This document shows positions 15,532-58,652 of a DNA stretch of 64,000 nt, in pieces (position 1 is the stretch's first letter; the number at the start of each line of letters is the position of its first letter). A program made the position numbers and the translations under genes. The notes under the pieces were generated by a model, which had not been told where the DNA came from, did not search any database, and was given only the letters and a program-made list of their open reading frames with translations. The DNA is from Escherichia phage vB_EcoM_Lh1B. The DNA lies in sequence record OK428535.1; one strand, written 5' to 3'.

Positions 15532-16599
15532 TTATTTTTCTTCTAGCTCTGTCGTCAACGGGATAATCAAATCCCGTTGGATAAAGTTATAGAAGGATTT
15601 AGTCAGACGTGTGAGGACTTTAGAGTCCACATAACGCGCCAAATCAACCAACATCGTACGTTTATGCTTTTCCATATTCCCCTGGTTGTATTGAAGACAA
15701 AACAGTGCCCAGTACCAGTTCACCATGTTCTGGTGCCAGGTGTTCTGCAGTGTTTGACCTGGTTCTCGAAAGACAATCAGTTCCAGTGCTGTGTGGCCTT
15801 CTTCATCAGGGTGTTGGAAGAACAATGGGATGTTGTTTAAGACTTGTCCCGGTAACGGGTTGGCAGCCAGTAGTTTACTACGGATGCCTTTTGCGTGCTT
15901 CACAGCTAAAGCTTGAAGCGGCGGAACAGGAATGACACGTAATGTTTCATCCGGTTCAATCTCTTTCCCGAAGGCTATCGCACGATGTATATTTACAAAG
16001 GCGATATCCATGTAGCTCGGCAACATGCGAGAGATCACATGTCGTTGGAGATACACAGGTGTGGCAATAGGTTCGGTACCGCGACTGTAGTGCTGCTGAC
16101 CTTTGACATATTGCCAAAGCAAAGCAACCAGGTTGATTTCGATCACCGTAACACCTCGGGGCCGTCCGTCACCGAACTTCCAATTGAGGTTGGTATACTC
16201 ATGGTAGAGGTAACGTGCGGGGGTGTAGTCGCGGAACGAAAGGTCTGGATTTACTGGGCGGGCTACGAGAGAGATTACCTCATCTTGGCCCTGGATAAAC
16301 TTGCTATTAAAGATTTGACCGTACTCACCAACAGACGTCAAGCGTAAGGCGTTACCGATCTGAACAAGTTTGCGACGGCAAGCCCATTCGATGTCTTCGT
16401 ACTCTGGTTCACCGGCATAGCCGATGGCAGACAACACCTCTTGCAACAAATGGCCATTACCAGCACTGCGATTAAGCTGTTCGTAGTAGTTGCGTATACG
16501 CTGGCTGTTGTTTTTTACGTGAGCCGCTAATGTTATAGCGGAGGGGTCCGTGCTGTGACCCTTTATGGCCACTTGGTTTAACTCGGCTTGGCTGAACAT
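15532..16599 (-). CDS. hypothetical protein
   Basis: Minus-strand ORF; start at ATG (MFSQAEL...) with AAGGAG 7 nt upstream. Confidence 0.5.
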   Translation of the reverse strand: MFSQAELNQVAIKGHSTDPSAITLAAHVKNNSQRIRNYYEQLNRSAGNGHLLQEVLSAIGYAGEPEYEDIEWACRRKLVQIGNALRLTSVGEYGQIFNSKFIQGQDEVISLVARPVNPDLSFRDYTPARYLYHEYTNLNWKFGDGRPRGVTVIEINLVALLWQYVKGQQHYSRGTEPIATPVYLQRHVISRMLPSYMDIAFVNIHRAIAFGKEIEPDETLRVIPVPPLQALAVKHAKGIRSKLLAANPLPGQVLNNIPLFFQHPDEEGHTALELIVFREPGQTLQNTWHQNMVNWYWALFCLQYNQGNMEKHKRTMLVDLARYVDSKVLTRLTKSFYNFIQRDLIIPLTTELEEK

Positions 16600-16651
16600 G
16601 GCAGACTCCTTAGATTCCACATAGGAAGTCAGTCACAGTCAAAAATATCTC

Positions 16652-16673
16652 AGATTGATATTATCTATGTGAC
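16652..16673 (+). promoter_or_regulatory. promoter-like motif AGATTGATATTATCTATGTGAC
   Basis: Motif family copy ~140 nt upstream of the ATG at 16806 (distal of two). Confidence 0.45.
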
Positions 16674-16747
16674 AGTTCCTGAGAAATGTCTGGACTATGT
16701 GCCTTGTAAGTAAGCGACGGCGTACTTGCATTCCATGAAATTACAGG

Positions 16748-16764
16748 CAGATATTATCTCTGCG
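16748..16764 (+). promoter_or_regulatory. promoter-like motif CAGATATTATCTCTGCG
   Basis: Motif family copy 44 nt upstream of the ATG at 16806 (proximal of two). Confidence 0.45.
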
Positions 16765-16805
16765 AACCGAACTATGATTGCAATCACTATTAAGGAATAT
16801 TTAAA

Positions 16806-18659
16806 ATGGTAAAAATCGTTGACTCTAACAACAACGCTCAGCAGAACAACACTCAGACTCAAGACACCGCACCACTGGGCGGTCTGGGCAACGAGACTGT
16901 AAAAGTGCAAACTGCTGTGCCGGGTACTTCTACTGTCAGCCAATTCGATAACGCATTTGGCATCCGCAACATCAGCACCTATGCAATGCACTTCGTCAAC
17001 CTCCTGGACGAGCTGAAGAAAAGCAACGAATACCTCAACGCTTTCCGCTGGGGCACCATCGCCGGCGTGGGTAACGAAATGGGTTCCGCGGCGTATGTCG
17101 CAGGCCAATGGCAGGGCCACTGGCTGTATGGTATCATCTTCTTTGAACGCGGTCAGTCTCTGCGTCTGAAAGAAACTACCAACAACGGCCAGGAAGACTA
17201 CTACACCATCACTGAACTGTTCAACAAAGACGTGCTGGCAGTAGTACAGAAAAACATCATGGAAGCGCATGGTCTGACCAATGCGAACTTCATGATCATC
17301 AACTCCGTACCAGACCTGGGTAAAGTTCTGGATGCTGAGTGGGCACGTACTCTGATGGGTCAGATGATGATGGGCATCTTCGGTCGTATCGCAGGCTACC
17401 TGGGTACGCTGAACCTGCGTAAGCATGACCGTTATCAGGCTGCAGTAATGCCGCTGGAAGATGGTGCGGTTGTGGATGCTAACGGCCACGCACAACGTGC
17501 TGATTTCGCAATCACCGTTGAGCACAGCCCAAGCAACGTATCCGACGCCACTCCGACTCTGCTGGACACCAATCAGGTACAGGTGTATCCGCGTGTATCC
17601 GGTACTGGTTTCGTCAACATGCGTTTCACCGGTCAGAAGCCTGTCGTTAACGGCGTCTACGACCTGAAACAGCTGCAGGCTGAAATCGTAGTAAGTCTGG
17701 TCGATTCTCAAACTGAAGGTGCAATGGCACCGTATGAACGTCAACTGCTGCTGCTGGCTGCATTTGCAGAAATCGCGGCAATCGGTGGCTGGCGTGACCT
17801 GTTTGTGAAACGTCTGAACAAACAAGATCGCAAGTTCTCCCGTGTGGCAGAATACCTGTCCTGGGGTGCTGACGCTCGTCCTGATGTATCCAAAATCGAC
17901 GGTAGCCGTGAAGCTATCGAAGGTTGCCTGGATATGTTCGCACCGCGTGAAGCAGCACTGGTAGTTAGCCATCGTGCCGGTAACGGTCTGGGTGGTCTGT
18001 CTACTATGCTGTCTGAAATTGCGGTCGGTTACGACAACTCTCTGAAACAGCTGCTCGCTATTCTGAATTCCATGTCCCCGCGTGATCAGAACGGCGAAGT
18101 TGTTGCAGCGACCAGCTTCACTGCAGTATTTGCTTCTGCACTGAAAGCACAGCTGGGCGATGCCTTCAATGGTACCATCCATTGCAGCCACATCGTGAAA
18201 GCAGCCGTACCGACTGTTTCCGGTGTTTACACCGGTACTGCACAGAAACGTAGCTTCCAGGATATGGACCTGATTTCCGTTGTTACCAAACTGGGTGATA
18301 ACGCGAACGACGTCTATAGCTACCTGAACGCACAGTCCTACAGCCACCGTGAACTGAACGAGCGTCAACAGCGTATCTACATGCTGAAACTGGCCGCTTC
18401 TCTGTTCGCATCCAAAGCACCGCAAGCTACCGGTGAATCTCTGGATATGGCTATCAACCCGATCTTCGGTAAATGCCTGCTGGACTTCGTCCGTAACAAC
18501 TGCACCTGGTCTATGACTGGTGTAAATGCCTACAACACGATGGCGACCTCTCTGTTCTTCAACAACGGTGGGGAAGACTTCACGCTGTCTGGCAACGGCC
18601 TGTCTGCAAGCGGTTCCGATTTCGGTCTGGGCGTGTCTCTGAGCAACTTCAAACTGTAA
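16806..18659 (+). CDS. abundant early protein; candidate phage-nucleus shell (chimallin-like) or major structural protein
   Basis: 617-aa ORF with strongly E. coli-optimal codons (CTG, CGT, GGT, AAC, ATC, TTC), unlike neighbours; TAAGGAA site; two upstream promoter-like motifs; next to RNAP beta-prime-like gene. Confidence 0.7.
   Translation: MVKIVDSNNNAQQNNTQTQDTAPLGGLGNETVKVQTAVPGTSTVSQFDNAFGIRNISTYAMHFVNLLDELKKSNEYLNAFRWGTIAGVGNEMGSAAYVAGQWQGHWLYGIIFFERGQSLRLKETTNNGQEDYYTITELFNKDVLAVVQKNIMEAHGLTNANFMIINSVPDLGKVLDAEWARTLMGQMMMGIFGRIAGYLGTLNLRKHDRYQAAVMPLEDGAVVDANGHAQRADFAITVEHSPSNVSDATPTLLDTNQVQVYPRVSGTGFVNMRFTGQKPVVNGVYDLKQLQAEIVVSLVDSQTEGAMAPYERQLLLLAAFAEIAAIGGWRDLFVKRLNKQDRKFSRVAEYLSWGADARPDVSKIDGSREAIEGCLDMFAPREAALVVSHRAGNGLGGLSTMLSEIAVGYDNSLKQLLAILNSMSPRDQNGEVVAATSFTAVFASALKAQLGDAFNGTIHCSHIVKAAVPTVSGVYTGTAQKRSFQDMDLISVVTKLGDNANDVYSYLNAQSYSHRELNERQQRIYMLKLAASLFASKAPQATGESLDMAINPIFGKCLLDFVRNNCTWSMTGVNAYNTMATSLFFNNGGEDFTLSGNGLSASGSDFGLGVSLSNFKL
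17676..17733 (+). repeat. copy A of ~58-bp direct repeat (inside CDS 16806..18659)
   Basis: caggctgaaatcgtagtaagtctggtcgattctcaaactgaaggtgcaatggcaccg; about 90 percent identical to 18677..18732. Confidence 0.8.
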
Positions 18660-18676
18660 TCGAATCGGTTACTGAG

Positions 18677-18732
18677 CAGGCTGAAATCGTAGTAAGTCTA
18701 TCGATTCCAAACTTGAAGGTGCAATGGCACCG
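18677..18732 (+). repeat. copy B of ~58-bp direct repeat (intergenic, includes ATG of next gene)
   Basis: caggctgaaatcgtagtaagtctatcgattccaaacttgaaggtgcaatggcaccg; ends in the first three codons of ORF 18724. Confidence 0.8.
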
Positions 18733-20250
18733 ATTGACAGAATGAGAAAGGTACCAAAATTCTACGGAATATCCGGCCGGTTGGTTAGTCAGGATAACTA
18801 TTTGTCCGATTTGCAAATAGAAGCTGCTGCCAAAGGTATTAAACCACCCACTATTATTAACGATGTCGCCGTTAACGGGGATGCGATCGAGGTTGCTGAA
18901 CTTATCGATCGCATGGTACAGAACAGAATCGTTGACGAAGAACTGAACTCTGCACCGATTTGTAGTTTGGATTGTCCGGCACCGATCGCGCATCGTTACA
19001 ATCTCGGTTGTAAGTGTCCGACGTGTGGCTATGTTGTAACTGAACATCGAATTGAATCCGATGTCTGGTTACGTGCACCTGATGAAATGGGTAACTTCGT
19101 CAACCCACGATTCTGGGCAATGTTCAATGCTTTCTTTAATAGCAAGTTGAAGAAGTTTGAACGTAACAAGGTCACTATCGAACGCGGTAATGACTTGATG
19201 ATGTGGATGATTGACCCGTATTACCGTATAGAAGAACCAGACGGTAAACGCGCACATGCTGTGAAACGTGTATTGGAAGAACATGGTTTCGTTCGTGGCT
19301 TGCGCAATCTGGTTGATAACCACGTTAGTATCTTTAACATCCTTACCACGCCAGAAGCCTGGAAGGAAATCTTCGCACCTAATCGGCATAACGCCGCTGA
19401 AGGTGAACGCTTACGTTTACAATGGAAGGAGCTATTCGAAACGCAACGTCACGCATTCTTTCCAAGACATTTACCGCTAATCTCCTCTAAACTTATCGTT
19501 ACTGAGGAAGGTCGTCGTGGTGTCATGGTAGACCCAGTGTTCACGGGTGCTATTGACGCGGTGAAAAATATCGCGTTGCTCTATACGCGGCGTAAAGCGA
19601 TCGAACCACGTTTTCTGATTAGTCGTGCTTTGAAGGCGAACCGTCAGCTAACGTACTTCCACATGGACTTCCGTCGTGAGTCTATGGAAGGTAAACCGGG
19701 TGACTATCGTGCGAAATTGGGTTCTACCCATATCCCGTTCGGTGGTCGTGCAACCATCTCACCTATCTCAGAACCACACGATGCCTGGAAGTTAAAAGCA
19801 CCGTGGCGTTGGATGGTTGGGTTGATGTCGACCCACATCGAGAACAAACTGCTACGACGGGGTTATTCGTCGCGGCAATGTGAGCGTATCGTTGCAAAAG
19901 CGGCAATGCAGTATGACCCGCTTGTAGACGAAATCTTTAAAGAACTGATTCGTGAATCCCCAGGCGGTCTTGGGATCATGGTCATACCGTTACGTAACCC
20001 AACGCTGGTACAGTTGTCTATTCAAACGCTGTACATCGATGAAGTTGTTACCGATGTTAACCAGTGTTCGCTGCGTATCTCTGACCGTGTGATCAAGATG
20101 GCTAACGGTTCGAAAAGAGCCCCATCGGACGGGAAACCTCTGATGCGTATTCTCCTGAAATGCTGGGAAACCCTAAAGCGTATCTACCAGAAATGGGGAC
20201 GAAAGTCTGAAACAACAGATACGATGGCCTACGCTAAACAATACTGCTAA
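18724..20250 (+). CDS. multisubunit RNA polymerase beta-prime-like subunit, N-terminal fragment
   Basis: Zinc-ribbon CSLDC...CKCPTCGYVVT (cf. beta-prime CxC...CxxCGVEVT); ELIRESP and RNPTLVQLSIQT match beta-prime EVIREHP / RAPTLHRLGIQA. Confidence 0.65.
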   Translation: MAPIDRMRKVPKFYGISGRLVSQDNYLSDLQIEAAAKGIKPPTIINDVAVNGDAIEVAELIDRMVQNRIVDEELNSAPICSLDCPAPIAHRYNLGCKCPTCGYVVTEHRIESDVWLRAPDEMGNFVNPRFWAMFNAFFNSKLKKFERNKVTIERGNDLMMWMIDPYYRIEEPDGKRAHAVKRVLEEHGFVRGLRNLVDNHVSIFNILTTPEAWKEIFAPNRHNAAEGERLRLQWKELFETQRHAFFPRHLPLISSKLIVTEEGRRGVMVDPVFTGAIDAVKNIALLYTRRKAIEPRFLISRALKANRQLTYFHMDFRRESMEGKPGDYRAKLGSTHIPFGGRATISPISEPHDAWKLKAPWRWMVGLMSTHIENKLLRRGYSSRQCERIVAKAAMQYDPLVDEIFKELIRESPGGLGIMVIPLRNPTLVQLSIQTLYIDEVVTDVNQCSLRISDRVIKMANGSKRAPSDGKPLMRILLKCWETLKRIYQKWGRKSETTDTMAYAKQYC

Positions 20251-20453
20251 CGGTTGTGATAATGGGTAATCAGCAGCGAAGCCTCGTGAGAGGAACGTTC
20301 AACGACTATCGCTGAAATGCGAGTAGGGGTCCCAGTGGACTTCGAAGTGGGAGAACACCTAAGGCGATAGCTATGGTGAAGATATAGTCTGTGCCTTATC
20401 GAGAGATAAGGAGGGTGTCTTAGCACACCTGCTGTATACGGAAACGGTATACG

Positions 20454-20693
20454 ATGGACAAACAGGATTTCGATGGTGACCAGTTCCAGGTACGTTTGCC
20501 AGTCGATGAAACTGAGATGAAGTTGGCGCTCCAATTCCGTCCAGATAACGGCTTTATGTCTTCTACTGATGTGGACCGCGTAGAACACGGCATGGTTTTA
20601 CATAACGAGCTAATCAGTATGCAGAACCAGTTCCTTATTGAAGCAGATGAGGATGATGAAGAAGGCATTCCGTTGGAAGCGGTGATGGGCTAA
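20454..20693 (+). CDS. hypothetical small acidic protein
   Basis: 79-aa ORF, weak ribosome-binding site. Confidence 0.3.
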   Translation: MDKQDFDGDQFQVRLPVDETEMKLALQFRPDNGFMSSTDVDRVEHGMVLHNELISMQNQFLIEADEDDEEGIPLEAVMG

Positions 20694-38491: not shown

Positions 38492-40454
38492 GATCCAAGA
38501 TCAGCGTCCGGGTAATGCCCGTCNCCCTAATCCCGATCAGCCAGCCCCTGTGGCGGCTGCTACCCAACAAGAGATGATTCTTCCGACCGTGCCTGATGAC
38601 GCGAATCCGGATGCAATCATCATGNCTATTAAACANNNNNACCCCNATTTTNNTTTTGCCCGTGCAGAAGAAGTTTATCACCAACATTATCATCAGCCGG
38701 AGCCTAAGCTCGAGCGTCCGACGTTTGTAGAAGAAGCTTTGCCCGAACCTGCTGCACCGGTACAGCCTGTATCCCAGACCTTCTCTGAACAGGTGCATGA
38801 GCATATTCATCACACCCCAGAACCGGNGGNAGAGAAANCGCCNGNGGNANAACCNNCNCCCCNNCNAAAAACNCCGGNNGGGGGNGNCCCNNNNAACCCG
38901 GGGNNAAAAAAAAAGNAAAACNCNNCNCCNAAGGTTCCGGAANAANAACAGGNCCNNGNGANTNACTTNGGTAANACCCATTTAGCTGAAACCGCCGAAA
39001 TGGGTGAAGATGAAGCTGATCGTATCCTGACACAGTCGAAGATGTTGATTGGTCTGAAACAAGACCCTAACATCATTGCAGACTCTCTGCAAAAGTTCCT
39101 CGGTAACATTAAACGTTCACCGAAAGACGGTCGGCTGCTGTTCGAAAGCCCTGAACAACAACAGGTTTACGACGACATCTATCGTGCTTTGAACATGACA
39201 CCGCCACGTCTACAGGACGGCGTACCGGCATTCGCTGGTGCACTGGACCGTGGTGACACCGCTTGGGAACAGCGTGTGATGTTGCCGGACGGTAAGGCAT
39301 CTGGTGCTATTGCACCGCGTGACAATATGCACACTGGCGCGCTGGCTGCTTTGCGTCGTGTACGTAAGTCGGGTATTCCGAACATGGTTTGGCTGCCGGC
39401 CACAGGTATCTACGTGNGCTTCCNCGCACCACATGAACGCGACCTTTGTGACTTCGACATGCGTCTAACACTGGAAACTGCGACCATCGGTATGCAGACC
39501 TACGGATTGATGCTGTCGTCGTCTTCTGGCGTGTACATGCGTCACATGGTTGAATTCGCACTTCAGTTTGTTACCGAAGCAACCATCGATTGTGCAGGTA
39601 ACGATCTGCGTACGGTGCTGTTGGATACCATTGATCTGGCTGACTACTGGCTGGTTATTCTGGGTCCGTTGCAGGCGAAGTGGCCGTCTGGTATTCCATG
39701 GACGCTGATGTGTGGCGAAGACGGTTGCACTCAGCAGGAAGATGTGAAGCTGAATATCGCACGTTGTATCCGTTTTGGTTCCGGTCTGTTTAGCGACCTG
39801 CAGAAANAACNGTGGGNACGTCAGCGCGGTACTGAGCGTCCAGTGATTTCTATTGCTGAACAGCGCGAATATATCGCGGCGCATCAGGTTGACCCATCCT
39901 CGGTATTTGAATACCACGACGTGCGTGTTGAATTTGGCCGTTCTACCCTGGGTAGCTTCTTTGACTCCACCGAGAAGTGGATTGAAGACGTTAACGCGTC
40001 AACTACGGCAGCGCTGTCTGAATTTGCTACCGAGCGTGAACGTGAATCCCATATGCGTTTAACTGCGGAAGCCCGTCGCTTAACGCGCTACGCTCACATG
40101 GTGAAATCTATCACTGTTAATGAGCAACGTGAAGTAAACGGTGAAATGCAGGTTATCCCACAAACTGAAACCGACACAGCGAAAATCGTTGAGATGCTGG
40201 AAGAGCTGTCTTCCGACCGTATCTACGTTGGTCAGTTTGAAAACGCGATTGCTGAATACAACGAACGTACACGTTTAGCGGTATTCGGTTACATGGGTAA
40301 ACGCTGCCCGGCGTGCGGTAAAACACACGGCGAGAAAGACGGTCTGTATCGCGGTATTGTTACCATCTCACCGGACAGGGTTTTTTTCGTGCTCTCTCGA
40401 GTGGTGTCCGAGATTCAGAAATTCTTGCTGGATCAATACGCCGATATTGGCTAG
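38484..40454 (+). CDS. hypothetical protein; Pro/Glu/Lys-rich low-complexity N-region, C-terminal CPACG zinc-ribbon-like motif
   Basis: 656-aa ORF; frame through 38521..38990 is provisional because of many N calls. Confidence 0.45.
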   Translation: MSEIQDQRPGNARXPNPDQPAPVAAATQQEMILPTVPDDANPDAIIMXIKXXXPXFXFARAEEVYHQHYHQPEPKLERPTFVEEALPEPAAPVQPVSQTFSEQVHEHIHHTPEPXXEKXXXXXXXPXXKXPXGXXXXNPGXKKKXNXXXKVPEXXQXXXXXXGXTHLAETAEMGEDEADRILTQSKMLIGLKQDPNIIADSLQKFLGNIKRSPKDGRLLFESPEQQQVYDDIYRALNMTPPRLQDGVPAFAGALDRGDTAWEQRVMLPDGKASGAIAPRDNMHTGALAALRRVRKSGIPNMVWLPATGIYVXFXAPHERDLCDFDMRLTLETATIGMQTYGLMLSSSSGVYMRHMVEFALQFVTEATIDCAGNDLRTVLLDTIDLADYWLVILGPLQAKWPSGIPWTLMCGEDGCTQQEDVKLNIARCIRFGSGLFSDLQKXXWXRQRGTERPVISIAEQREYIAAHQVDPSSVFEYHDVRVEFGRSTLGSFFDSTEKWIEDVNASTTAALSEFATERERESHMRLTAEARRLTRYAHMVKSITVNEQREVNGEMQVIPQTETDTAKIVEMLEELSSDRIYVGQFENAIAEYNERTRLAVFGYMGKRCPACGKTHGEKDGLYRGIVTISPDRVFFVLSRVVSEIQKFLLDQYADIG

Positions 40455-40498: not shown

Positions 40499-40870
40499 AT
40501 GGATACCACCTCTCTCTTCAAGCAGCGTAGCACACGTCCTATTACGTATCAGGAAGCCCATAACGAGCTTCTGGAAGCGTATGACCGTACACTGGCTCTT
40601 AATACCGGCGACCATCAGGTAGGGTTGTCAGATTTTGAAAACCCGGTATACGGTAGTCTTTACGATATCTGGTACGCCACTTACTTACGTGAAGAGGTCG
40701 GTGAAAACTACCGGATGTCGATAGACGAGTTCCTCGACCGTCCCCNCTGGCAGATACTNCTNATGCNCGACAATGCCCGTCGCCCCAATGNGTTTTTCCC
40801 CAAANCCGGGGAATACGCGGCGGGTAAACGCGGGCAAAAGGAGCCGGATAAATATATGACGGGATATTAA
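40499..40870 (+). CDS. hypothetical protein
   Basis: 123-aa ORF, weak ribosome-binding site, contains N calls. Confidence 0.3.
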   Translation: MDTTSLFKQRSTRPITYQEAHNELLEAYDRTLALNTGDHQVGLSDFENPVYGSLYDIWYATYLREEVGENYRMSIDEFLDRPXWQIXXMXDNARRPNXFFPKXGEYAAGKRGQKEPDKYMTGY

Positions 40871-40879
40871 AANAAATTN

Positions 40880-40908
40880 GGGGNTTCGGCCCCGTTTTCT
40901 TTTTTTTA
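40880..40908 (+). terminator. rho-independent terminator
   Basis: Hairpin GGGGnTTCGGCCCC then T-run (contains N). Confidence 0.55.
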
Positions 40909-43653: not shown

Positions 43654-45438
43654 TTAGAACCCGCAGATGTACTCCATAGGCTCTGTCACTACTTCCCCTT
43701 GCTTACGTAAGAACGTAGACAGGACAGTGTCTTTGTCCGGTAAGCAGAAGAAGTCTGTCGCTATTTCCATGGCATTAACTCGCCCAGCAGTTAAGTTGAC
43801 GCCCGTGCGACGTCGAATCTCTTCACTAACCCCATTGATGGACAGTAGTTCGATGAGTGTGGTCTCACGAGATTGGTTCATCATGTTTGTGGCCGAAGGG
43901 TAGGCCTGGGTTAAGTCCGCATCCGCAGTTTGTCCACGGAACGCAGAGTAATATTCGTCAATCTCCTCCAGAATGTTATTCAGACCGTTCTCAGCATTCA
44001 TACATGCTGTCAGGGTAACAATCCAACCGTCTGTACCGATAACCTCTTCATCGTAATCGTTACGCATTGCAGACCCTACGGAACCGATGACGTATCCTTT
44101 GTCATACAGATAATAGGTAAAGGCCACGCAGATACGTTTTGGTAGCGACGGGAAGATATCGTACATCGAGAAACCTGCCAGAATGGATATTGCCGAAGAC
44201 AAGTCGTTCGTTTTCTTATCCAACAACACGATTAACAAGTTATCCATCATGTTGTATACGGCATATTCGGCAGGGTAGTCCCGTTGTGCTTTTATGTGCC
44301 ATTGCAGGTTATCTTCATACGGCAGTCCAGGAATGTCGAGTTTGTGTAAACCGAGTTCGGTGTACAGTATGGCAGATAACTTGTACGAAGGACGTTGCCC
44401 TTCGTGGACACGCAACGAACGGAATAACACCATGGCATCCACACAGTAGAAAGACGCAGTACAGTAGAGTACGTGCCACTGTTGTGACGGTGCTTTGGTG
44501 AGTGACTTGGATTCCGTCTTTTTGTTCGCCTGGTCTTCTTTAAACCACAGACGACGGTATTTCTCCGGCACATCCGGATGGTTAAAGACGCCCAGTGGAT
44601 CGATACCTTCTTTCTGCAAGGTTTCCAACATGCGTGAAATATCGAACTGGTGGTTCCATGCGACCAGCAAATCAGGAAGACGCGGATGAATCTCTTCGAA
44701 CATCCTGACGATGCACTGCCCTGCCGTAGCGCAGGTATAGGTGAAGATTTTATAACCNCTGATAATGTCTTTGGTCTTTGTCNCCTTTTCGCCGGTCTTT
44801 TTGTCTTTNTCNTCGNATTCGNTTTTGNTTAAGAGTTCCTGCGCTTTTTTGANAATGACTTCTTCCGCGTTTTTACCGATGCGGTCCATGTAGTTCTTAG
44901 CACCAAAGAAATGGATTTCGTCGTCTAAGATAAATGACACGATCCACGGTTCCTTCGTGCCGTCCATTTCGTTGGTCTCCACGTCGTATACGCAAAGACG
45001 GTTAGGGCTGATGTTGTTCGGCCAGCGCTTTAAATATTTCTGTTTAATCCAGCTGGTAATCGGTAAGTCGGCCCAATAAACGTACGGGCTAGTACAGACA
45101 CGACGCAGGTTCTTTTTCGGGTCAGGGAAACGTGCACCTAAACCCATCTGCAACGTCTTCGCCATCTGCGCATCAGTAGTCCAGAGTTCTTGACATTTTC
45201 CTTTTTCTTCGAACTCTTTTTTCTCCTGGTGGTTACGATATTCTTCACGGGTAACGTACACCGGACGCTTTAAATTCTCACGCATTACCAAGCGCGGGAT
45301 AAGCCTGCCATCCTTAGTATGGATGACCTCTTTGATGAGGACAAAGTCATTTTCTTTTTCTTCGTCCGTCGCATAAGCGACGTGTTTGCACTCTTTAGCG
45401 ATGACATCCTCGGGTGCGTAATAGGTATTGATTTCCAT
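43654..45438 (-). CDS. family-B DNA polymerase, N-terminal fragment (3'-5' exonuclease domain plus motif A)
   Basis: Exo I YDVETN, Exo II WNHQFD, Exo III YNMMD with typical spacing; motif A DLTQAYPS (cf. T4/RB69 DLTSLYPS); ORF ends ~85 aa after motif A; some N calls. Confidence 0.65.
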   Translation of the reverse strand: MEINTYYAPEDVIAKECKHVAYATDEEKENDFVLIKEVIHTKDGRLIPRLVMRENLKRPVYVTREEYRNHQEKKEFEEKGKCQELWTTDAQMAKTLQMGLGARFPDPKKNLRRVCTSPYVYWADLPITSWIKQKYLKRWPNNISPNRLCVYDVETNEMDGTKEPWIVSFILDDEIHFFGAKNYMDRIGKNAEEVIXKKAQELLXKXEXXXKDKKTGEKXTKTKDIIXGYKIFTYTCATAGQCIVRMFEEIHPRLPDLLVAWNHQFDISRMLETLQKEGIDPLGVFNHPDVPEKYRRLWFKEDQANKKTESKSLTKAPSQQWHVLYCTASFYCVDAMVLFRSLRVHEGQRPSYKLSAILYTELGLHKLDIPGLPYEDNLQWHIKAQRDYPAEYAVYNMMDNLLIVLLDKKTNDLSSAISILAGFSMYDIFPSLPKRICVAFTYYLYDKGYVIGSVGSAMRNDYDEEVIGTDGWIVTLTACMNAENGLNNILEEIDEYYSAFRGQTADADLTQAYPSATNMMNQSRETTLIELLSINGVSEEIRRRTGVNLTAGRVNAMEIATDFFCLPDKDTVLSTFLRKQGEVVTEPMEYICGF

Positions 45439-45508: not shown

Positions 45509-46861
45509 ATGGGACACNGGNAAAANNANANAANCCCNTTGGCNNNCGNNAAANCCGNGGCCNCNGAANCCNNNGNNTTCNAAAAAAAAAAAAAANNCCC
45601 CTNTTTGGNGGNAGNGGNANGNANGTTNCGTGNTGCGGGNGACTTCTCGCCAGNGGGTTATCAGAGTTCTGGTATTGCTGCCTGGGTCTTTGACAACAAC
45701 GGTATTACAGTCCTGCCTCGTAACGGGTCCGACTTAGGTGTGGCGGACGTTGTGTTTGCGGGTGTGGAGCCGCCGAAGCTCGATGCGAACAACCCAATCA
45801 TCGCCGACCTGCAACGCAAGATGGTGCAGGGTAACACCGACCTGGATGTCTACAGTAAGTTCTTAAAAGAGAACGAACTGAACGGCGAGTTCGACGATAA
45901 AAATGCGAAGCTTTCAGGCGAACTCAGCAAGGTGCCGTCCCCACTTTGGCTGACCCCGAAACTACTGACCAGTATCGACTTAACGGATTTAGAAGTCGCG
46001 GCGATTATTCTACATGAAGTCGGCCACGTCTATTACTATTTCCGTACCTTGATGCGTACGGTGGTAACGAACCTGATTGCGGATGCTGCAGCGAACCGCA
46101 TGATGCAAACCGAAGACCCGACAGTGCGTTTGAAAGTCGTAAAAGACGTTGAACGTATGCTGAACACCAAAGTGAATCAGCCGGAAACTATCTGCAAAGA
46201 GATGTCTAAAGAGAACATCTACATGCATCTGGTGACGGACATTCTGCTTGAGCGTCCATTTGTTACCGGTTCGGAAGGGTTCGCTAACCGTACCTGGGAA
46301 CGTGCTGCAGATGACTTCGCAGCTCGCTTTGGTGCAGCCCCGTACCTGGCGTCAGCCCTGTACAAAATCGAAACGTCCCAATTCTATCTCTGCCGGAACG
46401 CGTCGTACATGAACTACGGTGTGCATCTGATGCTGGAAATGCTTAACGTTTCGCTGCTGATTGTGGCTTCGACTAATCCAGTTGGCCTGTTCTTCACGAC
46501 TATCTCGGTGGCGTTCGGTCTGATTGTGAACGACCCACGCAACACCATCTACGATCCGCCGCAGGAACGTTTTGAGACGATGCGTCGTAACTTAGTGGAA
46601 GAGCTGAACACCTTAAAAGGTAGCACCACGAAAGAAGCGAACGAACATCGTAAACGTATTCTGCAGGGCATTGCGTCTATCGACGAATTACTGAAAACCG
46701 TGAAAGACAAAGACAACGTCTTTAGCTTCATCATGAAAACGCTGACCCCTGGCGGTCGCCGTGAGCGCGCTGGTGTGGATTATCAGCGTACGATGGAGCG
46801 NTATCTTTCTAATGACCTGCGTGTGGCTTCATCAAAGCTAAGCCGGGCTACCGTTTCTTAA
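45509..46861 (+). CDS. M48-like (HtpX/Ste24-type) zinc metalloprotease candidate with C-terminal hydrophobic segments
   Basis: HEVGH ~95 aa before ERAADDFAA (ExxADxxA third-ligand motif); hydrophobic stretch LLIVASTNPVGLFFTTISVAFGLIV; true start uncertain because N calls fill 45518..45653. Confidence 0.5.
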   Translation: MGHXXXXXXXLXXXKXXAXEXXXFXKKKKXPXLXXXXXXXRXAXDFSPXGYQSSGIAAWVFDNNGITVLPRNGSDLGVADVVFAGVEPPKLDANNPIIADLQRKMVQGNTDLDVYSKFLKENELNGEFDDKNAKLSGELSKVPSPLWLTPKLLTSIDLTDLEVAAIILHEVGHVYYYFRTLMRTVVTNLIADAAANRMMQTEDPTVRLKVVKDVERMLNTKVNQPETICKEMSKENIYMHLVTDILLERPFVTGSEGFANRTWERAADDFAARFGAAPYLASALYKIETSQFYLCRNASYMNYGVHLMLEMLNVSLLIVASTNPVGLFFTTISVAFGLIVNDPRNTIYDPPQERFETMRRNLVEELNTLKGSTTKEANEHRKRILQGIASIDELLKTVKDKDNVFSFIMKTLTPGGRRERAGVDYQRTMEXYLSNDLRVASSKLSRATVS

Positions 46862-55981: not shown

Positions 55982-56037
55982 GGGGGCCCCTTATCTAGGG
56001 GCGTGTAATTGGGTTATAACCAAAGGAACCGAAACAA

Positions 56038-57315
56038 ATGGCAAACTTTGTAAAAAGTAAACTCGCCCGCGAGTCCGTTGAAGCTACCGGCGACGTAATC
56101 GACGGTCTGAGCAACGTTGAACCGGCAGAAGAGAACATCGACGTTCAGCTGGCAGAAGTTGCGTCTATCGACGGTCAGCTGGAACAGCTCGATGGTGACC
56201 AGGAAACCCTGGCTGCTGATACCGAGTGTACCGAAGCTGCTATCGACGCTGCTGACGAAAAAATCGAAAACGGTGAAGAGATGCCTGAAGAAGCCATCGC
56301 TCACACCGAAGTGGCGCAGGAATCTATCCGTAAACGTTGGGCTATCGATCGTACCAAACTGGCACGCGAATCTTATCGCCGTGGCCGTGGCATGACCAAA
56401 GCAGCTCAGGAAGGCTGGAAAGAAACCCTGAAAGATCTGTTCAAGCGCTTCGTTGAACTGTGTAAAGCAGTTATCGCGAAAGCGAAAGAGCTGAAACTGA
56501 AATACATCAACGTTGGTAAGTCTGCACAGAAACGTGCGAAAGCTTACCAAGAGATGCTGCGTAAGCTCGGTAAGCAGAAGAAAGAAAACATCTCTGGCGG
56601 CTTTATTAGCAAACTGTCTATCGAAGGCGACTTCGATGTGGCCAACTCCATCGCTATCGCGAAAGAGCTGACCGGCGGTAAAGCGAAAGACGCTATCAAC
56701 AAGCTGTCCTCTCAGGCGTCCGAATCTGCTGTAGCGATCACCAAAACCGCAGAAGGTACTGCAACGGCTGCTAAAGGCGCTGTTGATGTTGCCCTGTTCG
56801 GTACCGCTGCTAAGAAACTGCGCACCCTGCCGCAGTTCGAAGATGGCGAAGGCGGTCAGAAAGTTCTGGCACTGCCAGGCAACGCCTATGTGCAGATCGG
56901 TAGCAAAACTCTGGCCGGCGGCCAGGACTTCACTGCGGTGGCGTTCCTGTCAACTGGCGACTCTACCGACACGAAAGAGATTGCTACCCCGGCAATTACC
57001 GCACTGGCGTCTGCAGCAACCGCTCTTGATGCGATCGGTAAAGGCTTCGAGAAAGTGCTGCAGGACTTCCGCTCCTATGACGCCGATGTTGAGAAACTGG
57101 AGCAGGCTGCTAGCAAAGCTGCTGCTGCCCTGGATAAATCCAACGACGAAGGCGAGTGGGAAGCACTGCGTAATGCACGTACTGCAGCCGACCAGGCTGT
57201 GCGTAACTACCAGACTCTGAACCGTGCCGTGGCGCATGTTGGTAACACTGTTATCAGCGGCCTGAACGGTTACATCGGTGCTGGTATCGGCGCGTACGAA
57301 AAGTCTAAAGCTTAA
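56038..57315 (+). CDS. acidic alpha-helical protein, paralog A (probably abundant)
   Basis: 425 aa; starts MANFVKSKLARESVE, contains AQESIRKRWA and LGKQKKE..SGGFI, ends GAGIGAYEKSKA; optimal codons. Confidence 0.65.
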   Translation: MANFVKSKLARESVEATGDVIDGLSNVEPAEENIDVQLAEVASIDGQLEQLDGDQETLAADTECTEAAIDAADEKIENGEEMPEEAIAHTEVAQESIRKRWAIDRTKLARESYRRGRGMTKAAQEGWKETLKDLFKRFVELCKAVIAKAKELKLKYINVGKSAQKRAKAYQEMLRKLGKQKKENISGGFISKLSIEGDFDVANSIAIAKELTGGKAKDAINKLSSQASESAVAITKTAEGTATAAKGAVDVALFGTAAKKLRTLPQFEDGEGGQKVLALPGNAYVQIGSKTLAGGQDFTAVAFLSTGDSTDTKEIATPAITALASAATALDAIGKGFEKVLQDFRSYDADVEKLEQAASKAAAALDKSNDEGEWEALRNARTAADQAVRNYQTLNRAVAHVGNTVISGLNGYIGAGIGAYEKSKA

Positions 57316-57392
57316 TCCGCTTTACGTACCAAACGTCGGTTGACATATCATTACAAACGGCACGCGTCTTATCGCCTAGCGGACCGAAAAAG

Positions 57393-58652
57393 ATGGCTAA
57401 CTTTGTAAAAAGTAAACTCGCGCGTGAATCTGTCGAAGGCACAGGTACTGTCGTTCCGGACGGTATCGAGCTGCCGGCTGAGTCCGTAGAAGGTACTCTG
57501 GCTGACATCGAGCACGACACTAAACCGATCGACCAGCTGGATGCTGAAGCAGATGTGCTGGCAGAAGACGGCGACGAAACCGACGCGCAGCTGGATGCAG
57601 TTGATGCTGCTGAAGCTGCTGCTGACGGTGAAGGTGAAGATGGCGAAGAGCCAATGGAAGTGGAAGAAGATATGCCTGACGAAGCTGCTGAGCAGCTGGA
57701 CGTTGCGCAGGAATCTATCCGTAAACGTTGGGCATTCGACCACCGCGTAAGCGTTGCGCAGGAATCTTACGGTGCACGTAAGCGCCGCCAGGTTGCTCGT
57801 GAAAGCCTGTGGGACGACATCAAAGCGTTCCTGCAGCGCATCTACGACTGGCTGAAAGAACAAGGCCGTAAGGTTAAAGACCGTTGGCTGAAGTTCAGCA
57901 ACCAGGGTAAATCCATTCAGGCGCGTGCTAAGAAATATGACGCTGCTCTGCGTGGCCTGGGCAAGCAGAAGAAAGACACCGTTAGCGGTGGGTTCATTAA
58001 GAACCTGACCACCGGTGGTAAGTTCGTCGGTGACGACATCAACGTCCTGAAAGAGCTTCTGTCTTCTATCGGCAGCATCTACGGTGAGCAGGATGCAGTT
58101 GTTGCAGCCGCTACCACTATGGTTGGCGCAGTTGAGGCTGGCAAACGGGTTGGCGGTTTCGCAGCAGCGGTTAACAAAGCAACTGCAGGTAAAGCGGGCG
58201 AAGTTCAGCTGCTGGGCAACCAGATCGGTAAAGCCGAAGTGAAAGTGAACGGGGATGACCTGGAAGCTTCCTTCAATGTTATCGACGCCGAAGGTAGCGT
58301 AGAGCAGTCTGTTTCTACTCCGTCTCTCACGACTCTGTCTTCCCTGGTTGCGTTCTTCAACCAGCTGGGTAAAGCAGTCGAAGAGAACGTGAAAGCATAC
58401 CACAAAAATAACCAGGCTCAAGAGCGTTACGAGCAGGCTATTGAGAAACTGCTGAAACGTATCGACGGCGTGAAGATCGACGACAACGCAGAACTGACTT
58501 CCAACGTCCGTGTTGCACGTCGTGCAATCACCGTTGCGAACCAGTACATCTCCTGGACCGAACGTTGCGTTGCANCCGGCCANAAAAACCTGATCGCCGG
58601 CGTTAACGGCTACATCNGCGAGGGTATCGGTGCGTACGAAAAGTATAAGTAA
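57393..58652 (+). CDS. acidic alpha-helical protein, paralog B (probably abundant)
   Basis: 419 aa; same N-terminus, internal blocks and C-terminal GIGAYEKYK as paralog A. Confidence 0.65.
   Translation: MANFVKSKLARESVEGTGTVVPDGIELPAESVEGTLADIEHDTKPIDQLDAEADVLAEDGDETDAQLDAVDAAEAAADGEGEDGEEPMEVEEDMPDEAAEQLDVAQESIRKRWAFDHRVSVAQESYGARKRRQVARESLWDDIKAFLQRIYDWLKEQGRKVKDRWLKFSNQGKSIQARAKKYDAALRGLGKQKKDTVSGGFIKNLTTGGKFVGDDINVLKELLSSIGSIYGEQDAVVAAATTMVGAVEAGKRVGGFAAAVNKATAGKAGEVQLLGNQIGKAEVKVNGDDLEASFNVIDAEGSVEQSVSTPSLTTLSSLVAFFNQLGKAVEENVKAYHKNNQAQERYEQAIEKLLKRIDGVKIDDNAELTSNVRVARRAITVANQYISWTERCVAXGXKNLIAGVNGYIXEGIGAYEKYK

Follow-up and report, generated by a model that had tools for sequence, protein, structure and literature searches.

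A segment copied from inside chmA over the downstream terminator appears private to one reference-registered jumbo-phage sequence

The window, by which we mean the whole stretch of 64,000 nucleotides that was analyzed, carries a near-duplicate of an internal segment of the chimallin gene chmA directly in front of a gene for a subunit of the non-virion RNA polymerase (RNAP). We consider it highly probable, at roughly 85%, that this second copy (copy B) is a private, one-off sequence anomaly rather than a genetic element, and that it has no conserved function. According to the explanation that we favor, an exact copy of about 60 nt from the interior of chmA, bearing an ATC allele, would have replaced the terminator and the GAGG site in a source sequence, and that sequence would then have been forced into the coordinates of phage EC001, giving rise to the indels, the stray A at 18733, and the in-frame ATG at 18724 that the window displays. 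The features of the locus are as follows:

16806..18659, + strand: chmA, chimallin (phage nuclear shell protein), 617 aa, assigned from a fold model, Foldseek, and phrog_8316
17675..17734, + strand: copy A, the donor, an unremarkable part of the chmA coding sequence (residues 290-310, ..QAEIVVSLVDSQTEGAMAPY..)
18676..18733, + strand: copy B, which repeats copy A ectopically where relatives have the terminator hairpin, the U-tract, and the GAGG Shine-Dalgarno site; private to the window
18724..18741, + strand: six codons (MAPIDR) that seem to extend the RNAP ORF at its N-terminus, an artifact of a dropped base
18742..18744, + strand: actual start codon of the gene for the RNAP subunit; the relatives all have GTG, and only the window has ATG
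18742..20693, + strand: gene for the non-virion RNAP beta-prime N-terminal subunit, a homolog of phiKZ gp55, assigned from PDB 7ogp and phrog_2987
18742-~20109 (exon 1), ~20110-20465 (group I intron), and 20466-20693 (exon 2), + strand: parts of that gene, from Rfam RF00028 and intronless relatives

The window comes from an SPN3US-like jumbo phage that belongs to the genus Seoulvirus, with 97.5-98.8% identity to Salmonella phages 1252, SPLA5c, and SPN3US and to Escherichia phage EC001. The 617-aa protein upstream of copy B has no Pfam match and no PDB sequence match (phmmer vs PDB), and a PF25677 match listed by a protein search was not recovered in a Pfam run on ChmA homologs. Because phmmer against the PDB came back empty, a fold search was needed: with an AlphaFold2 model (pLDDT 73.9, pTM 0.77) as the query, the top nine Foldseek matches in the PDB are all chimallin/PhuN structures, from Goslar, 201phi2-1, and PhiPA3 (E 2e-21 to 7e-17, TM 0.56-0.68). 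As the model matches only structures of this kind, we take the protein to be the nuclear-shell protein ChmA; it also matches phrog_8316 (E 1e-302) and is 100% identical to a cluster found in hundreds of public assemblies. The chimallin of SPN3US has been named 'gp244' (Laughlin et al. 2022, PMC9365700), and the GenBank locus tag of chmA in that genome is SPN3US_0022. The downstream protein matches PDB 7ogp chain A (PHIKZ055; E 1.5e-32) as well as phrog_2987. Its gene is interrupted by a group I intron, matched by Rfam RF00028 at 20090-20411 with 69.4 bits; positions 20109-20464 are absent from SPFM6 and SPFM12, and across the junction the protein of the intronless SPN3US reads ..IKMANG followed directly by DFDGDQFQ...

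The two copies lie where the earlier note had placed them, the second just after the upstream stop codon. Aligned to each other, copy A (17675-17732) and copy B (18676-18732) have 54 matches, one mismatch, and three one-base indels, with exact stretches of 24 nt at the left end and 19 nt at the right end. When the window was shuffled 20 times with its composition preserved, the longest exact direct repeat measured 14-18 nt, so 24 and 19 collinear bases are not a chance similarity. We also agree with the description of copy B as a nucleotide-level copy and not a protein repeat. Copy A is contained in the ORF at 16806-18659, and copy B begins 17 nt past the TAA stop (18657-18659) of that ORF, between flanks that are the native ones; its left junction joins GGTTACTGAG to CAGGCTGAAATC, with GGTTACTGAGCAGGCTGAAATCG as the junction k-mer. 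A tandem or segmental duplication of a 1-kb segment was rejected, since the similarity stops at both borders of the 58 nt.

The donor is located 1001 nt upstream of copy B in the same orientation, a start-to-start offset that is suspiciously round, and a second example of such a copy was not found in this genome within the window. The 6000-nt spacing of another repeat (5857/11857) was also considered as an anomaly and dismissed as a coincidence between natural terminator T-runs that EC001 has as well. In both copies, GAAGGTGCA precedes an ATG: the one at 17724 is Met307, in frame with the chmA ORF, and the one at 18724 opens an ORF of 508 aa in the window. The copies also differ in allele, with GTC at codon 17699-17701 of the resident copy A, where EC001 and eight of ten contigs have ATC, and with ATC in copy B.

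Copy B was found in none of the relatives read at this locus, which number roughly 30 (roughly a dozen genomes from GenBank plus 20 independent contigs). In an alignment of seven GenBank genomes, including those of 1252, SPN3US, EC001, SaP7, STsAS, and Erwinia phage pEa_SNUABM_29, every genome has a terminator at the copy B site, although 1252, SPN3US, EC001, and SaP7 are 98-99% identical to the window. The same terminator version is present in 10 of 10 independent contigs that encode an identical 502-aa RNAP subunit, in 10 of 10 that encode an identical ChmA, and in three SPFM records, which were read after their reversed 60-nt lines had been put back in order. The idea that the copy is conserved within the SPN3US species was therefore dropped, as even phage 1252, at 98.8% identity, lacks it. 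A 301-nt query across copy B retrieved no record above about 88% identity from a phage collection, and the copy-B core and, likewise, its left junction were absent from IMG/VR contigs, JGI metagenome contigs, and GTDB genomes, whereas a positive control search with the terminator version found SPN3US. The earlier note had proposed looking for both copies in related phages, and had held that relatives without copy B in an unchanged gene order would speak against its proposal; as far as conservation goes, this is the picture obtained, since all relatives read have the same gene order and lack copy B. On the genomes and contigs compared, copy B is private to the sequence behind this window.

In place of copy B, all aligned relatives have a native segment of 57 nt, TAGTTAGGAAACGGACGGGGGCTAACGCCTCCGTCCTTCCCTCTTTTTTTGTTGAGG, followed by TTGACAGAGTGAGAAAGG, within which the GTG corresponds to position 18742 of the window. 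This segment comprises a hairpin, a U7 tract, and a GAGG Shine-Dalgarno site, after which comes the GTG start. The hairpin, GGACGGGGGC-UAAC-GCCUCCGUCC, has a GC-rich stem of 10 bp, extendable by GGAA/UUCC (10-14 bp with the extension), and is followed by CUC-U7; the fold energy of the hairpin stretch is -37.2 kcal/mol (z = -3.9). STsAS and pEa_SNUABM_29, which are 79%-identical relatives, show a compensatory G:C to A:T change in the stem. A simple terminator scanner did not call the native hairpin, because of a bulge and a 3-8 nt offset of the T-run. Taken as a whole, the displaced segment looks like a conserved and functional intrinsic terminator. A promoter-like motif, AGATNGATATTATC, with 10 matches against 1.0 expected by chance, is present twice upstream of chmA and not at all between chmA and the RNAP gene, which suggests that the RNAP gene is probably reliant on readthrough in any case. 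The hairpin of natural phages would probably attenuate readthrough into the RNAP gene.

The finer details of copy B can be reproduced by projecting an exact copy onto a reference. We took a 60-nt copy of 17675-17734 with the ATC allele, as in EC001 and most relatives, placed it over the terminator so that it replaced the native 18676-18733, aligned the product to the native sequence, and wrote it in reference coordinates, with insertions dropped and deletions filled from the reference. The output matches the window base for base, the sole residual difference being position 18742, the edited start codon. Three bases drop out in the process (the G that follows GTCT and one T each from TTCTC and CCGTA), and a single deletion is filled, by the reference T at 18714. 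This result is stable across several linear-gap scorings (e.g., 1/-2/-3/-3), and only 2 of 28-64 co-optimal alignments give the window; the reconstruction was not obtained with affine read-mapper scorings (bwa-, bowtie2-, GATK-, and EMBOSS-like) and needs gap-permissive or linear gap costs. As a null control, copies damaged at random by three deletions and one insertion were run through the same search space, and 10 of 200,000 proved reproducible by projection. A randomly mutated or planted copy was rejected on the basis of the projection fit against this null.

Because the projection reproduces copy B exactly, the three indels, the ~90% identity, the stray A at 18733, the 57-for-57 replacement, and the in-frame ATG at 18724 are projection artifacts. 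The small indels that had been read as breaking the frame are thus present in the window, but they stem from the writing of the copy onto reference coordinates. The exact 60-nt copy, which in context reads …GGTTACTGAG CAGGCTGAAATCGTAGTAAGTCTGATCGATTCTCAAACTGAAGGTGCAATGGCACCGTA TTGACAGAGTG…, is a reconstruction and not a directly observed sequence. Read from the copy-B ATG after de-projection, it gives GAAGGTG-N2-ATG GCA CCG TAT TGA, a 4-codon mini-ORF (MAPY plus stop) that runs in a different frame from the RNAP gene and whose stop lies 4 nt before the native GTG. The proposal that copy B supplies an SD-like GAAGGTG and the first codons, ATG GCA CCG, of ORF 18724 holds for the processed window, but not for the reconstruction, where that ATG is out of frame and the native start is the GTG at 18742. 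No record of the 508-aa RNAP product was found, and the 502-aa product occurs in 52 blocks of the assembly index. The duplication of a 60-nt flat-file line, a layout fault akin to that of the line-reversed SPFM records, was suggested by the reconstruction being exactly 60 nt long, but was rejected as a source of copy B, given that the offset of 1001 is not a multiple of 60 and that the replaced native block is 58 nt long.

The window as a whole bears the marks of the same treatment. Over its entire length, bases 1 to 64000, it stays in register with EC001 (MN445185), with 1371 substitutions and 0 indels, whereas other relatives need gaps, the closest natural contigs requiring 6-9 gap openings in the first 1 kb alone. 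Most of the substitutions look natural, with 585 of 747 coding differences from EC001 at third codon positions and with alleles common to other isolates at 100 of 140 polymorphic sites near the locus. Contigs that encode the widespread proteins of the window are only 99.1-99.5% identical to it.

Nine starts are annotated as GTG or TTG in EC001, and each of them reads ATG in the window and nowhere else, the idiosyncratic EC001 calls at 2971, 8575, and 21254 included. Another of the nine, at 20454, falls inside the group I intron, 12 nt before exon 2, and is not a real start codon; selection cannot explain an ATG at such a position, and annotation-aware editing must have happened. In addition, there are more than 130 Ns together with smeared or garbled stretches in hypervariable regions, as well as an independent projection scar at 845-868, where the natural lineage has 27 nt and EC001 has 24 nt, and where the window compresses lineage-type bases into 24. 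Rather than a raw natural sequence, the window is one that has been forced into EC001 coordinates and whose annotated non-ATG starts have been rewritten to ATG. Two private clusters of differences (842-859 and 1673-1709) were considered as copied patches and discarded, as they have no source elsewhere in the window and the former is the projection scar just described. For quality control, a natural relative needs to be consulted before start codons, short changes of frame, or dense clusters of mismatches in the window are taken for biology.

As to how the underlying copy was made, we lean slightly toward a single template switch at the terminator hairpin, which would have taken place during replication or repair in the isolate. 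Strong hairpins are classic sites of polymerase stalling. The junction homologies are only 1 nt each, with G at 18676/17675 on the left and T at 18734/17735 on the right. A switch of this kind would suit a window built from the reads of a real isolate. An origin in the production of the sequence, during assembly, finishing, or editing, may fall somewhat short of even odds, and the evident editing of the window makes an error of this kind credible. The mismatch between ATC and GTC, together with the near-round offset, seems to point to a production error or to a more complex history, since a recent intragenomic copy with ATC in copy B and GTC in copy A would need an extra event, be it recombination, a mixed sample, or a co-infecting donor. 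The earlier suggestion of a recombination scar therefore survives in modified form only, as a one-off templated insertion-deletion over the terminator, if the copy is real. In that event, the chmA terminator and the native ribosome-binding site would have been lost, and a 4-codon leader ORF (MAPY plus stop) ending 4 nt before the GTG would have been gained. Biologically, this would be minor, at best a single-isolate structural mutation of a known kind.

A copy that is both real and selected would have more interesting consequences, although we regard it as unlikely. With the terminator lost, the RNAP beta-prime gene would be transcribed together with chmA, which is expressed very strongly, while the copied SD and ATG would create a short leader ORF from which ribosomes reach the GTG by termination-reinitiation; the essential nvRNAP beta-prime gene under chmA readthrough would then amount to a natural experiment re-balancing shell and polymerase expression in a nucleus-forming phage. 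Such rewiring is consistent with a replaced segment that is exactly the terminator plus the ribosome-binding site, with a de-projected mini-ORF that ends 4 nt before the GTG, and with the position of the AGATNGATATTATC motifs, two upstream of chmA and none between the genes. It is difficult to reconcile with an arrangement that is seen in one sequence only, and in 0 of roughly 30 relatives, where the terminator and SD are conserved down to a compensatory stem change, and the one sequence in question is unreliable. An old, diverged duplication, or an inserted copy that was randomly mutated, appears less probable again. At face value, three indels and one substitution in 58 nt would suit it, the 7% difference being true divergence or noise; but every difference sits at a gap of the alignment to the native terminator, so the differences are not random, and the 'inserted' T is identical to the reference base. 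Projection can reproduce random damage in just 5 in 100,000 cases, and an old duplication would be common to the 98-99% identical relatives, where it is absent.

The two functional roles that the earlier note had offered find even less room. In a shared translation-initiation module, the same SD and ATG would drive both the RNAP gene and a start at Met307, the latter giving a C-terminal chimallin isoform of roughly 311 aa; to this end, GAAGGTGCAATGGCACCG is identical in both copies and the ATG at 17724 is in frame with chmA. However, the relatives manage without copy B and use the GTG at 18742 with a GAGG SD, the copy-B ATG, once de-projected, does not share the RNAP reading frame, and in both copies the SD and ATG lie within a small GGUGC/GCACC hairpin. 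In the predicted chimallin fold, residues 290-309 occupy a central position (strand 290-298, start of helix 309-326). Although the protein segment that copy A encodes is conserved, with the consensus LKQLQ.E.VVSL.DSQ..G...P.ERQ, the Met307 column among 27 ChmA family representatives holds 13 Arg, 5 Met, 5 Lys, 2 Leu, and 2 Ser, so that 22 of the 27 have Arg, Lys, Leu, or Ser, and phages of 77-79% identity have Leu. Judged from this alignment, internal initiation at Met307 is not a family trait, and we see very little prospect for a shared module. We would give almost no credence to an RNA element, in which one regulator would recognize both copies, or the copies would pair and so tie the two messages together, although two near-identical 58-nt stretches would indeed lie on one would-be transcript once the terminator is gone. 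Direct repeats are not complementary and cannot pair with each other, which refutes the pairing variant outright; the copies fold no better than shuffled sequence (z = 0.0 for copy A and -1.4 for copy B), and Rfam returned no family match at either of them. No relative has a second copy, and hence there is no conservation or covariation in support of such an element.

With regard to known systems, the window most resembles a reference-registered consensus or pseudo-genome, a type of sequence that takes up substitutions, omits insertions, keeps the reference where bases are deleted, and sets uncertain sites to N, and which it matches in its EC001-identical length over 64 kb, its Ns and smears, the scar at 845-868, and a copy B that projection reproduces. 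It differs in its rewritten starts, as pipelines of this kind normally leave GTG and TTG starts alone. The underlying copy is comparable to the products of template switching (templated insertion-deletions of the FoSTeS/MMBIR type), with a donor about 1 kb away on the same molecule and in the same orientation, local sequence replaced rather than added to, an exact reconstructed copy, 1-nt junction homologies, and a strong hairpin at the replaced site. In the present case, the event would be read from a processed consensus, the donor allele differs from the resident one, and there is no second example in the genome.

Nested in-frame internal initiation does occur in phage genes, as in lambda C/Nu3, and here, too, an SD-like motif and an in-frame ATG are found inside a long, highly expressed ORF. 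In contrast to lambda C/Nu3, the Met in question is not conserved, its product is putative, and the twin cassette on the next gene is absent from other genomes. The gene order itself corresponds to the phiKZ gp54-gp55 pair, a chimallin fold followed by a phiKZ gp55 homolog, and the natural representatives of this chmA-nvRNAP pair in nucleus-forming jumbo phages show nothing unusual. The genuine features of the locus are the group I intron just before the catalytic DFDGD motif and the conserved hairpin with U7 between chmA and the RNAP gene, which in the Seoulvirus group occupies an 82-nt spacer between the two genes.

The window (1-64000) has the same length and register as positions 1-64000 of the Escherichia phage EC001 (MN445185), from which it differs by 1371 substitutions and not a single indel. 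Despite this shared register, its alleles are mostly those of other lineages, and it carries projection scars, the marks of sequence forced into EC001 coordinates by dropping insertions and filling deletions from the reference (for example, at 845-868). Given the register without indels and these scars, small oddities of frame or length anywhere in the window are suspect.

The start codons bear a further mark of processing. At all nine coding sequences annotated in EC001 with a GTG or TTG start, the window reads ATG:

2971, 8575, 11920, 14325, 18742: ATG for GTG or TTG (EC001 annotation)
20454: the same, within an intron
21254: the same, immediately following a real ATG
60570, 61123: the same

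All natural relatives checked keep GTG or TTG (seven sites inside the first 50 kb). This uniform replacement, extending even to 20454 and 21254, indicates that the nucleotide sequence of the window was edited following the annotation.

In its hypervariable stretches, the window has over 130 Ns, along with smeared base calls that resemble homopolymers, as in 'NAAAAAAAAAAAAAANNCCCC' versus 'CAAGATAAAAAGAAACTCGCC' in EC001. These stretches are low-confidence consensus regions:

38524-38975, 39417-39817, 40746-40884, 44758-44853, 45518-45654: N-containing or smeared
onward to 63708: scattered stretches of the same kind

Some public records of relatives have faults of their own. In LR535901, LR535905, and LR535911 (SPFM1, SPFM6, and SPFM12 in GenBank/ENA), the 60-nt lines stand in reversed order, each line itself reading forward, which is a deposition error. 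As a consequence, BLAST yields hundreds of 60-nt pieces, and the gene annotations of these three records are meaningless. Other SPFM records, matching in 40 pieces, probably share the line reversal.

The intron that holds position 20454 lies in the nvRNAP beta-prime subunit gene:

20090-20465: region of the group I intron (RF00028, Rfam match 20090-20411, 69.4 bits, E 1e-16; exon junction at about 20109/20466)

The catalytic DFDGD motif of the subunit directly follows it on the 3' side (IKMANG/DFDGDQFQ). EC001 and phage 1252 share the intron with the window, whereas SPN3US, SPFM6, and SPFM12 lack it. In public annotations the gene appears split, with "beta subunit 1" and "beta subunit 2" given as separate ORFs. 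In L029, a related contig, a truncated RNAP ORF is followed by an ORF with a faint NUMOD1, which may represent an endonuclease-bearing variant.

A conserved motif, AGATNGATATTATC, matches 10 times (1.0 expected by chance), upstream of genes, and is likely a phage promoter element:

16652-16665 and 16745-16758: tandem pair upstream of chmA, common to the window, STsAS, and pEa29
4801, 7765, 25202, 26618, 30361, 58726: other matches

The adjoining genes 56038-57315 and 57393-58652 resemble each other at their 5' ends (56014-56348 and 57369-57739), where stretches of 78-90% identity take in the ribosome-binding site and the start. The two genes look like a tandem paralogue pair.

Opposite chmA lies one further reading frame:

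16695-18425, minus strand: 576-aa ORF

Most likely this frame is no gene but a side effect of the strong codon bias of chmA. In SPN3US, the chimallin-fold gene has the GenBank locus tag SPN3US_0022 (15768-17621), a numbering scheme different from that of "gp244," the name given to SPN3US chimallin by Laughlin et al. 2022 (PMC9365700).
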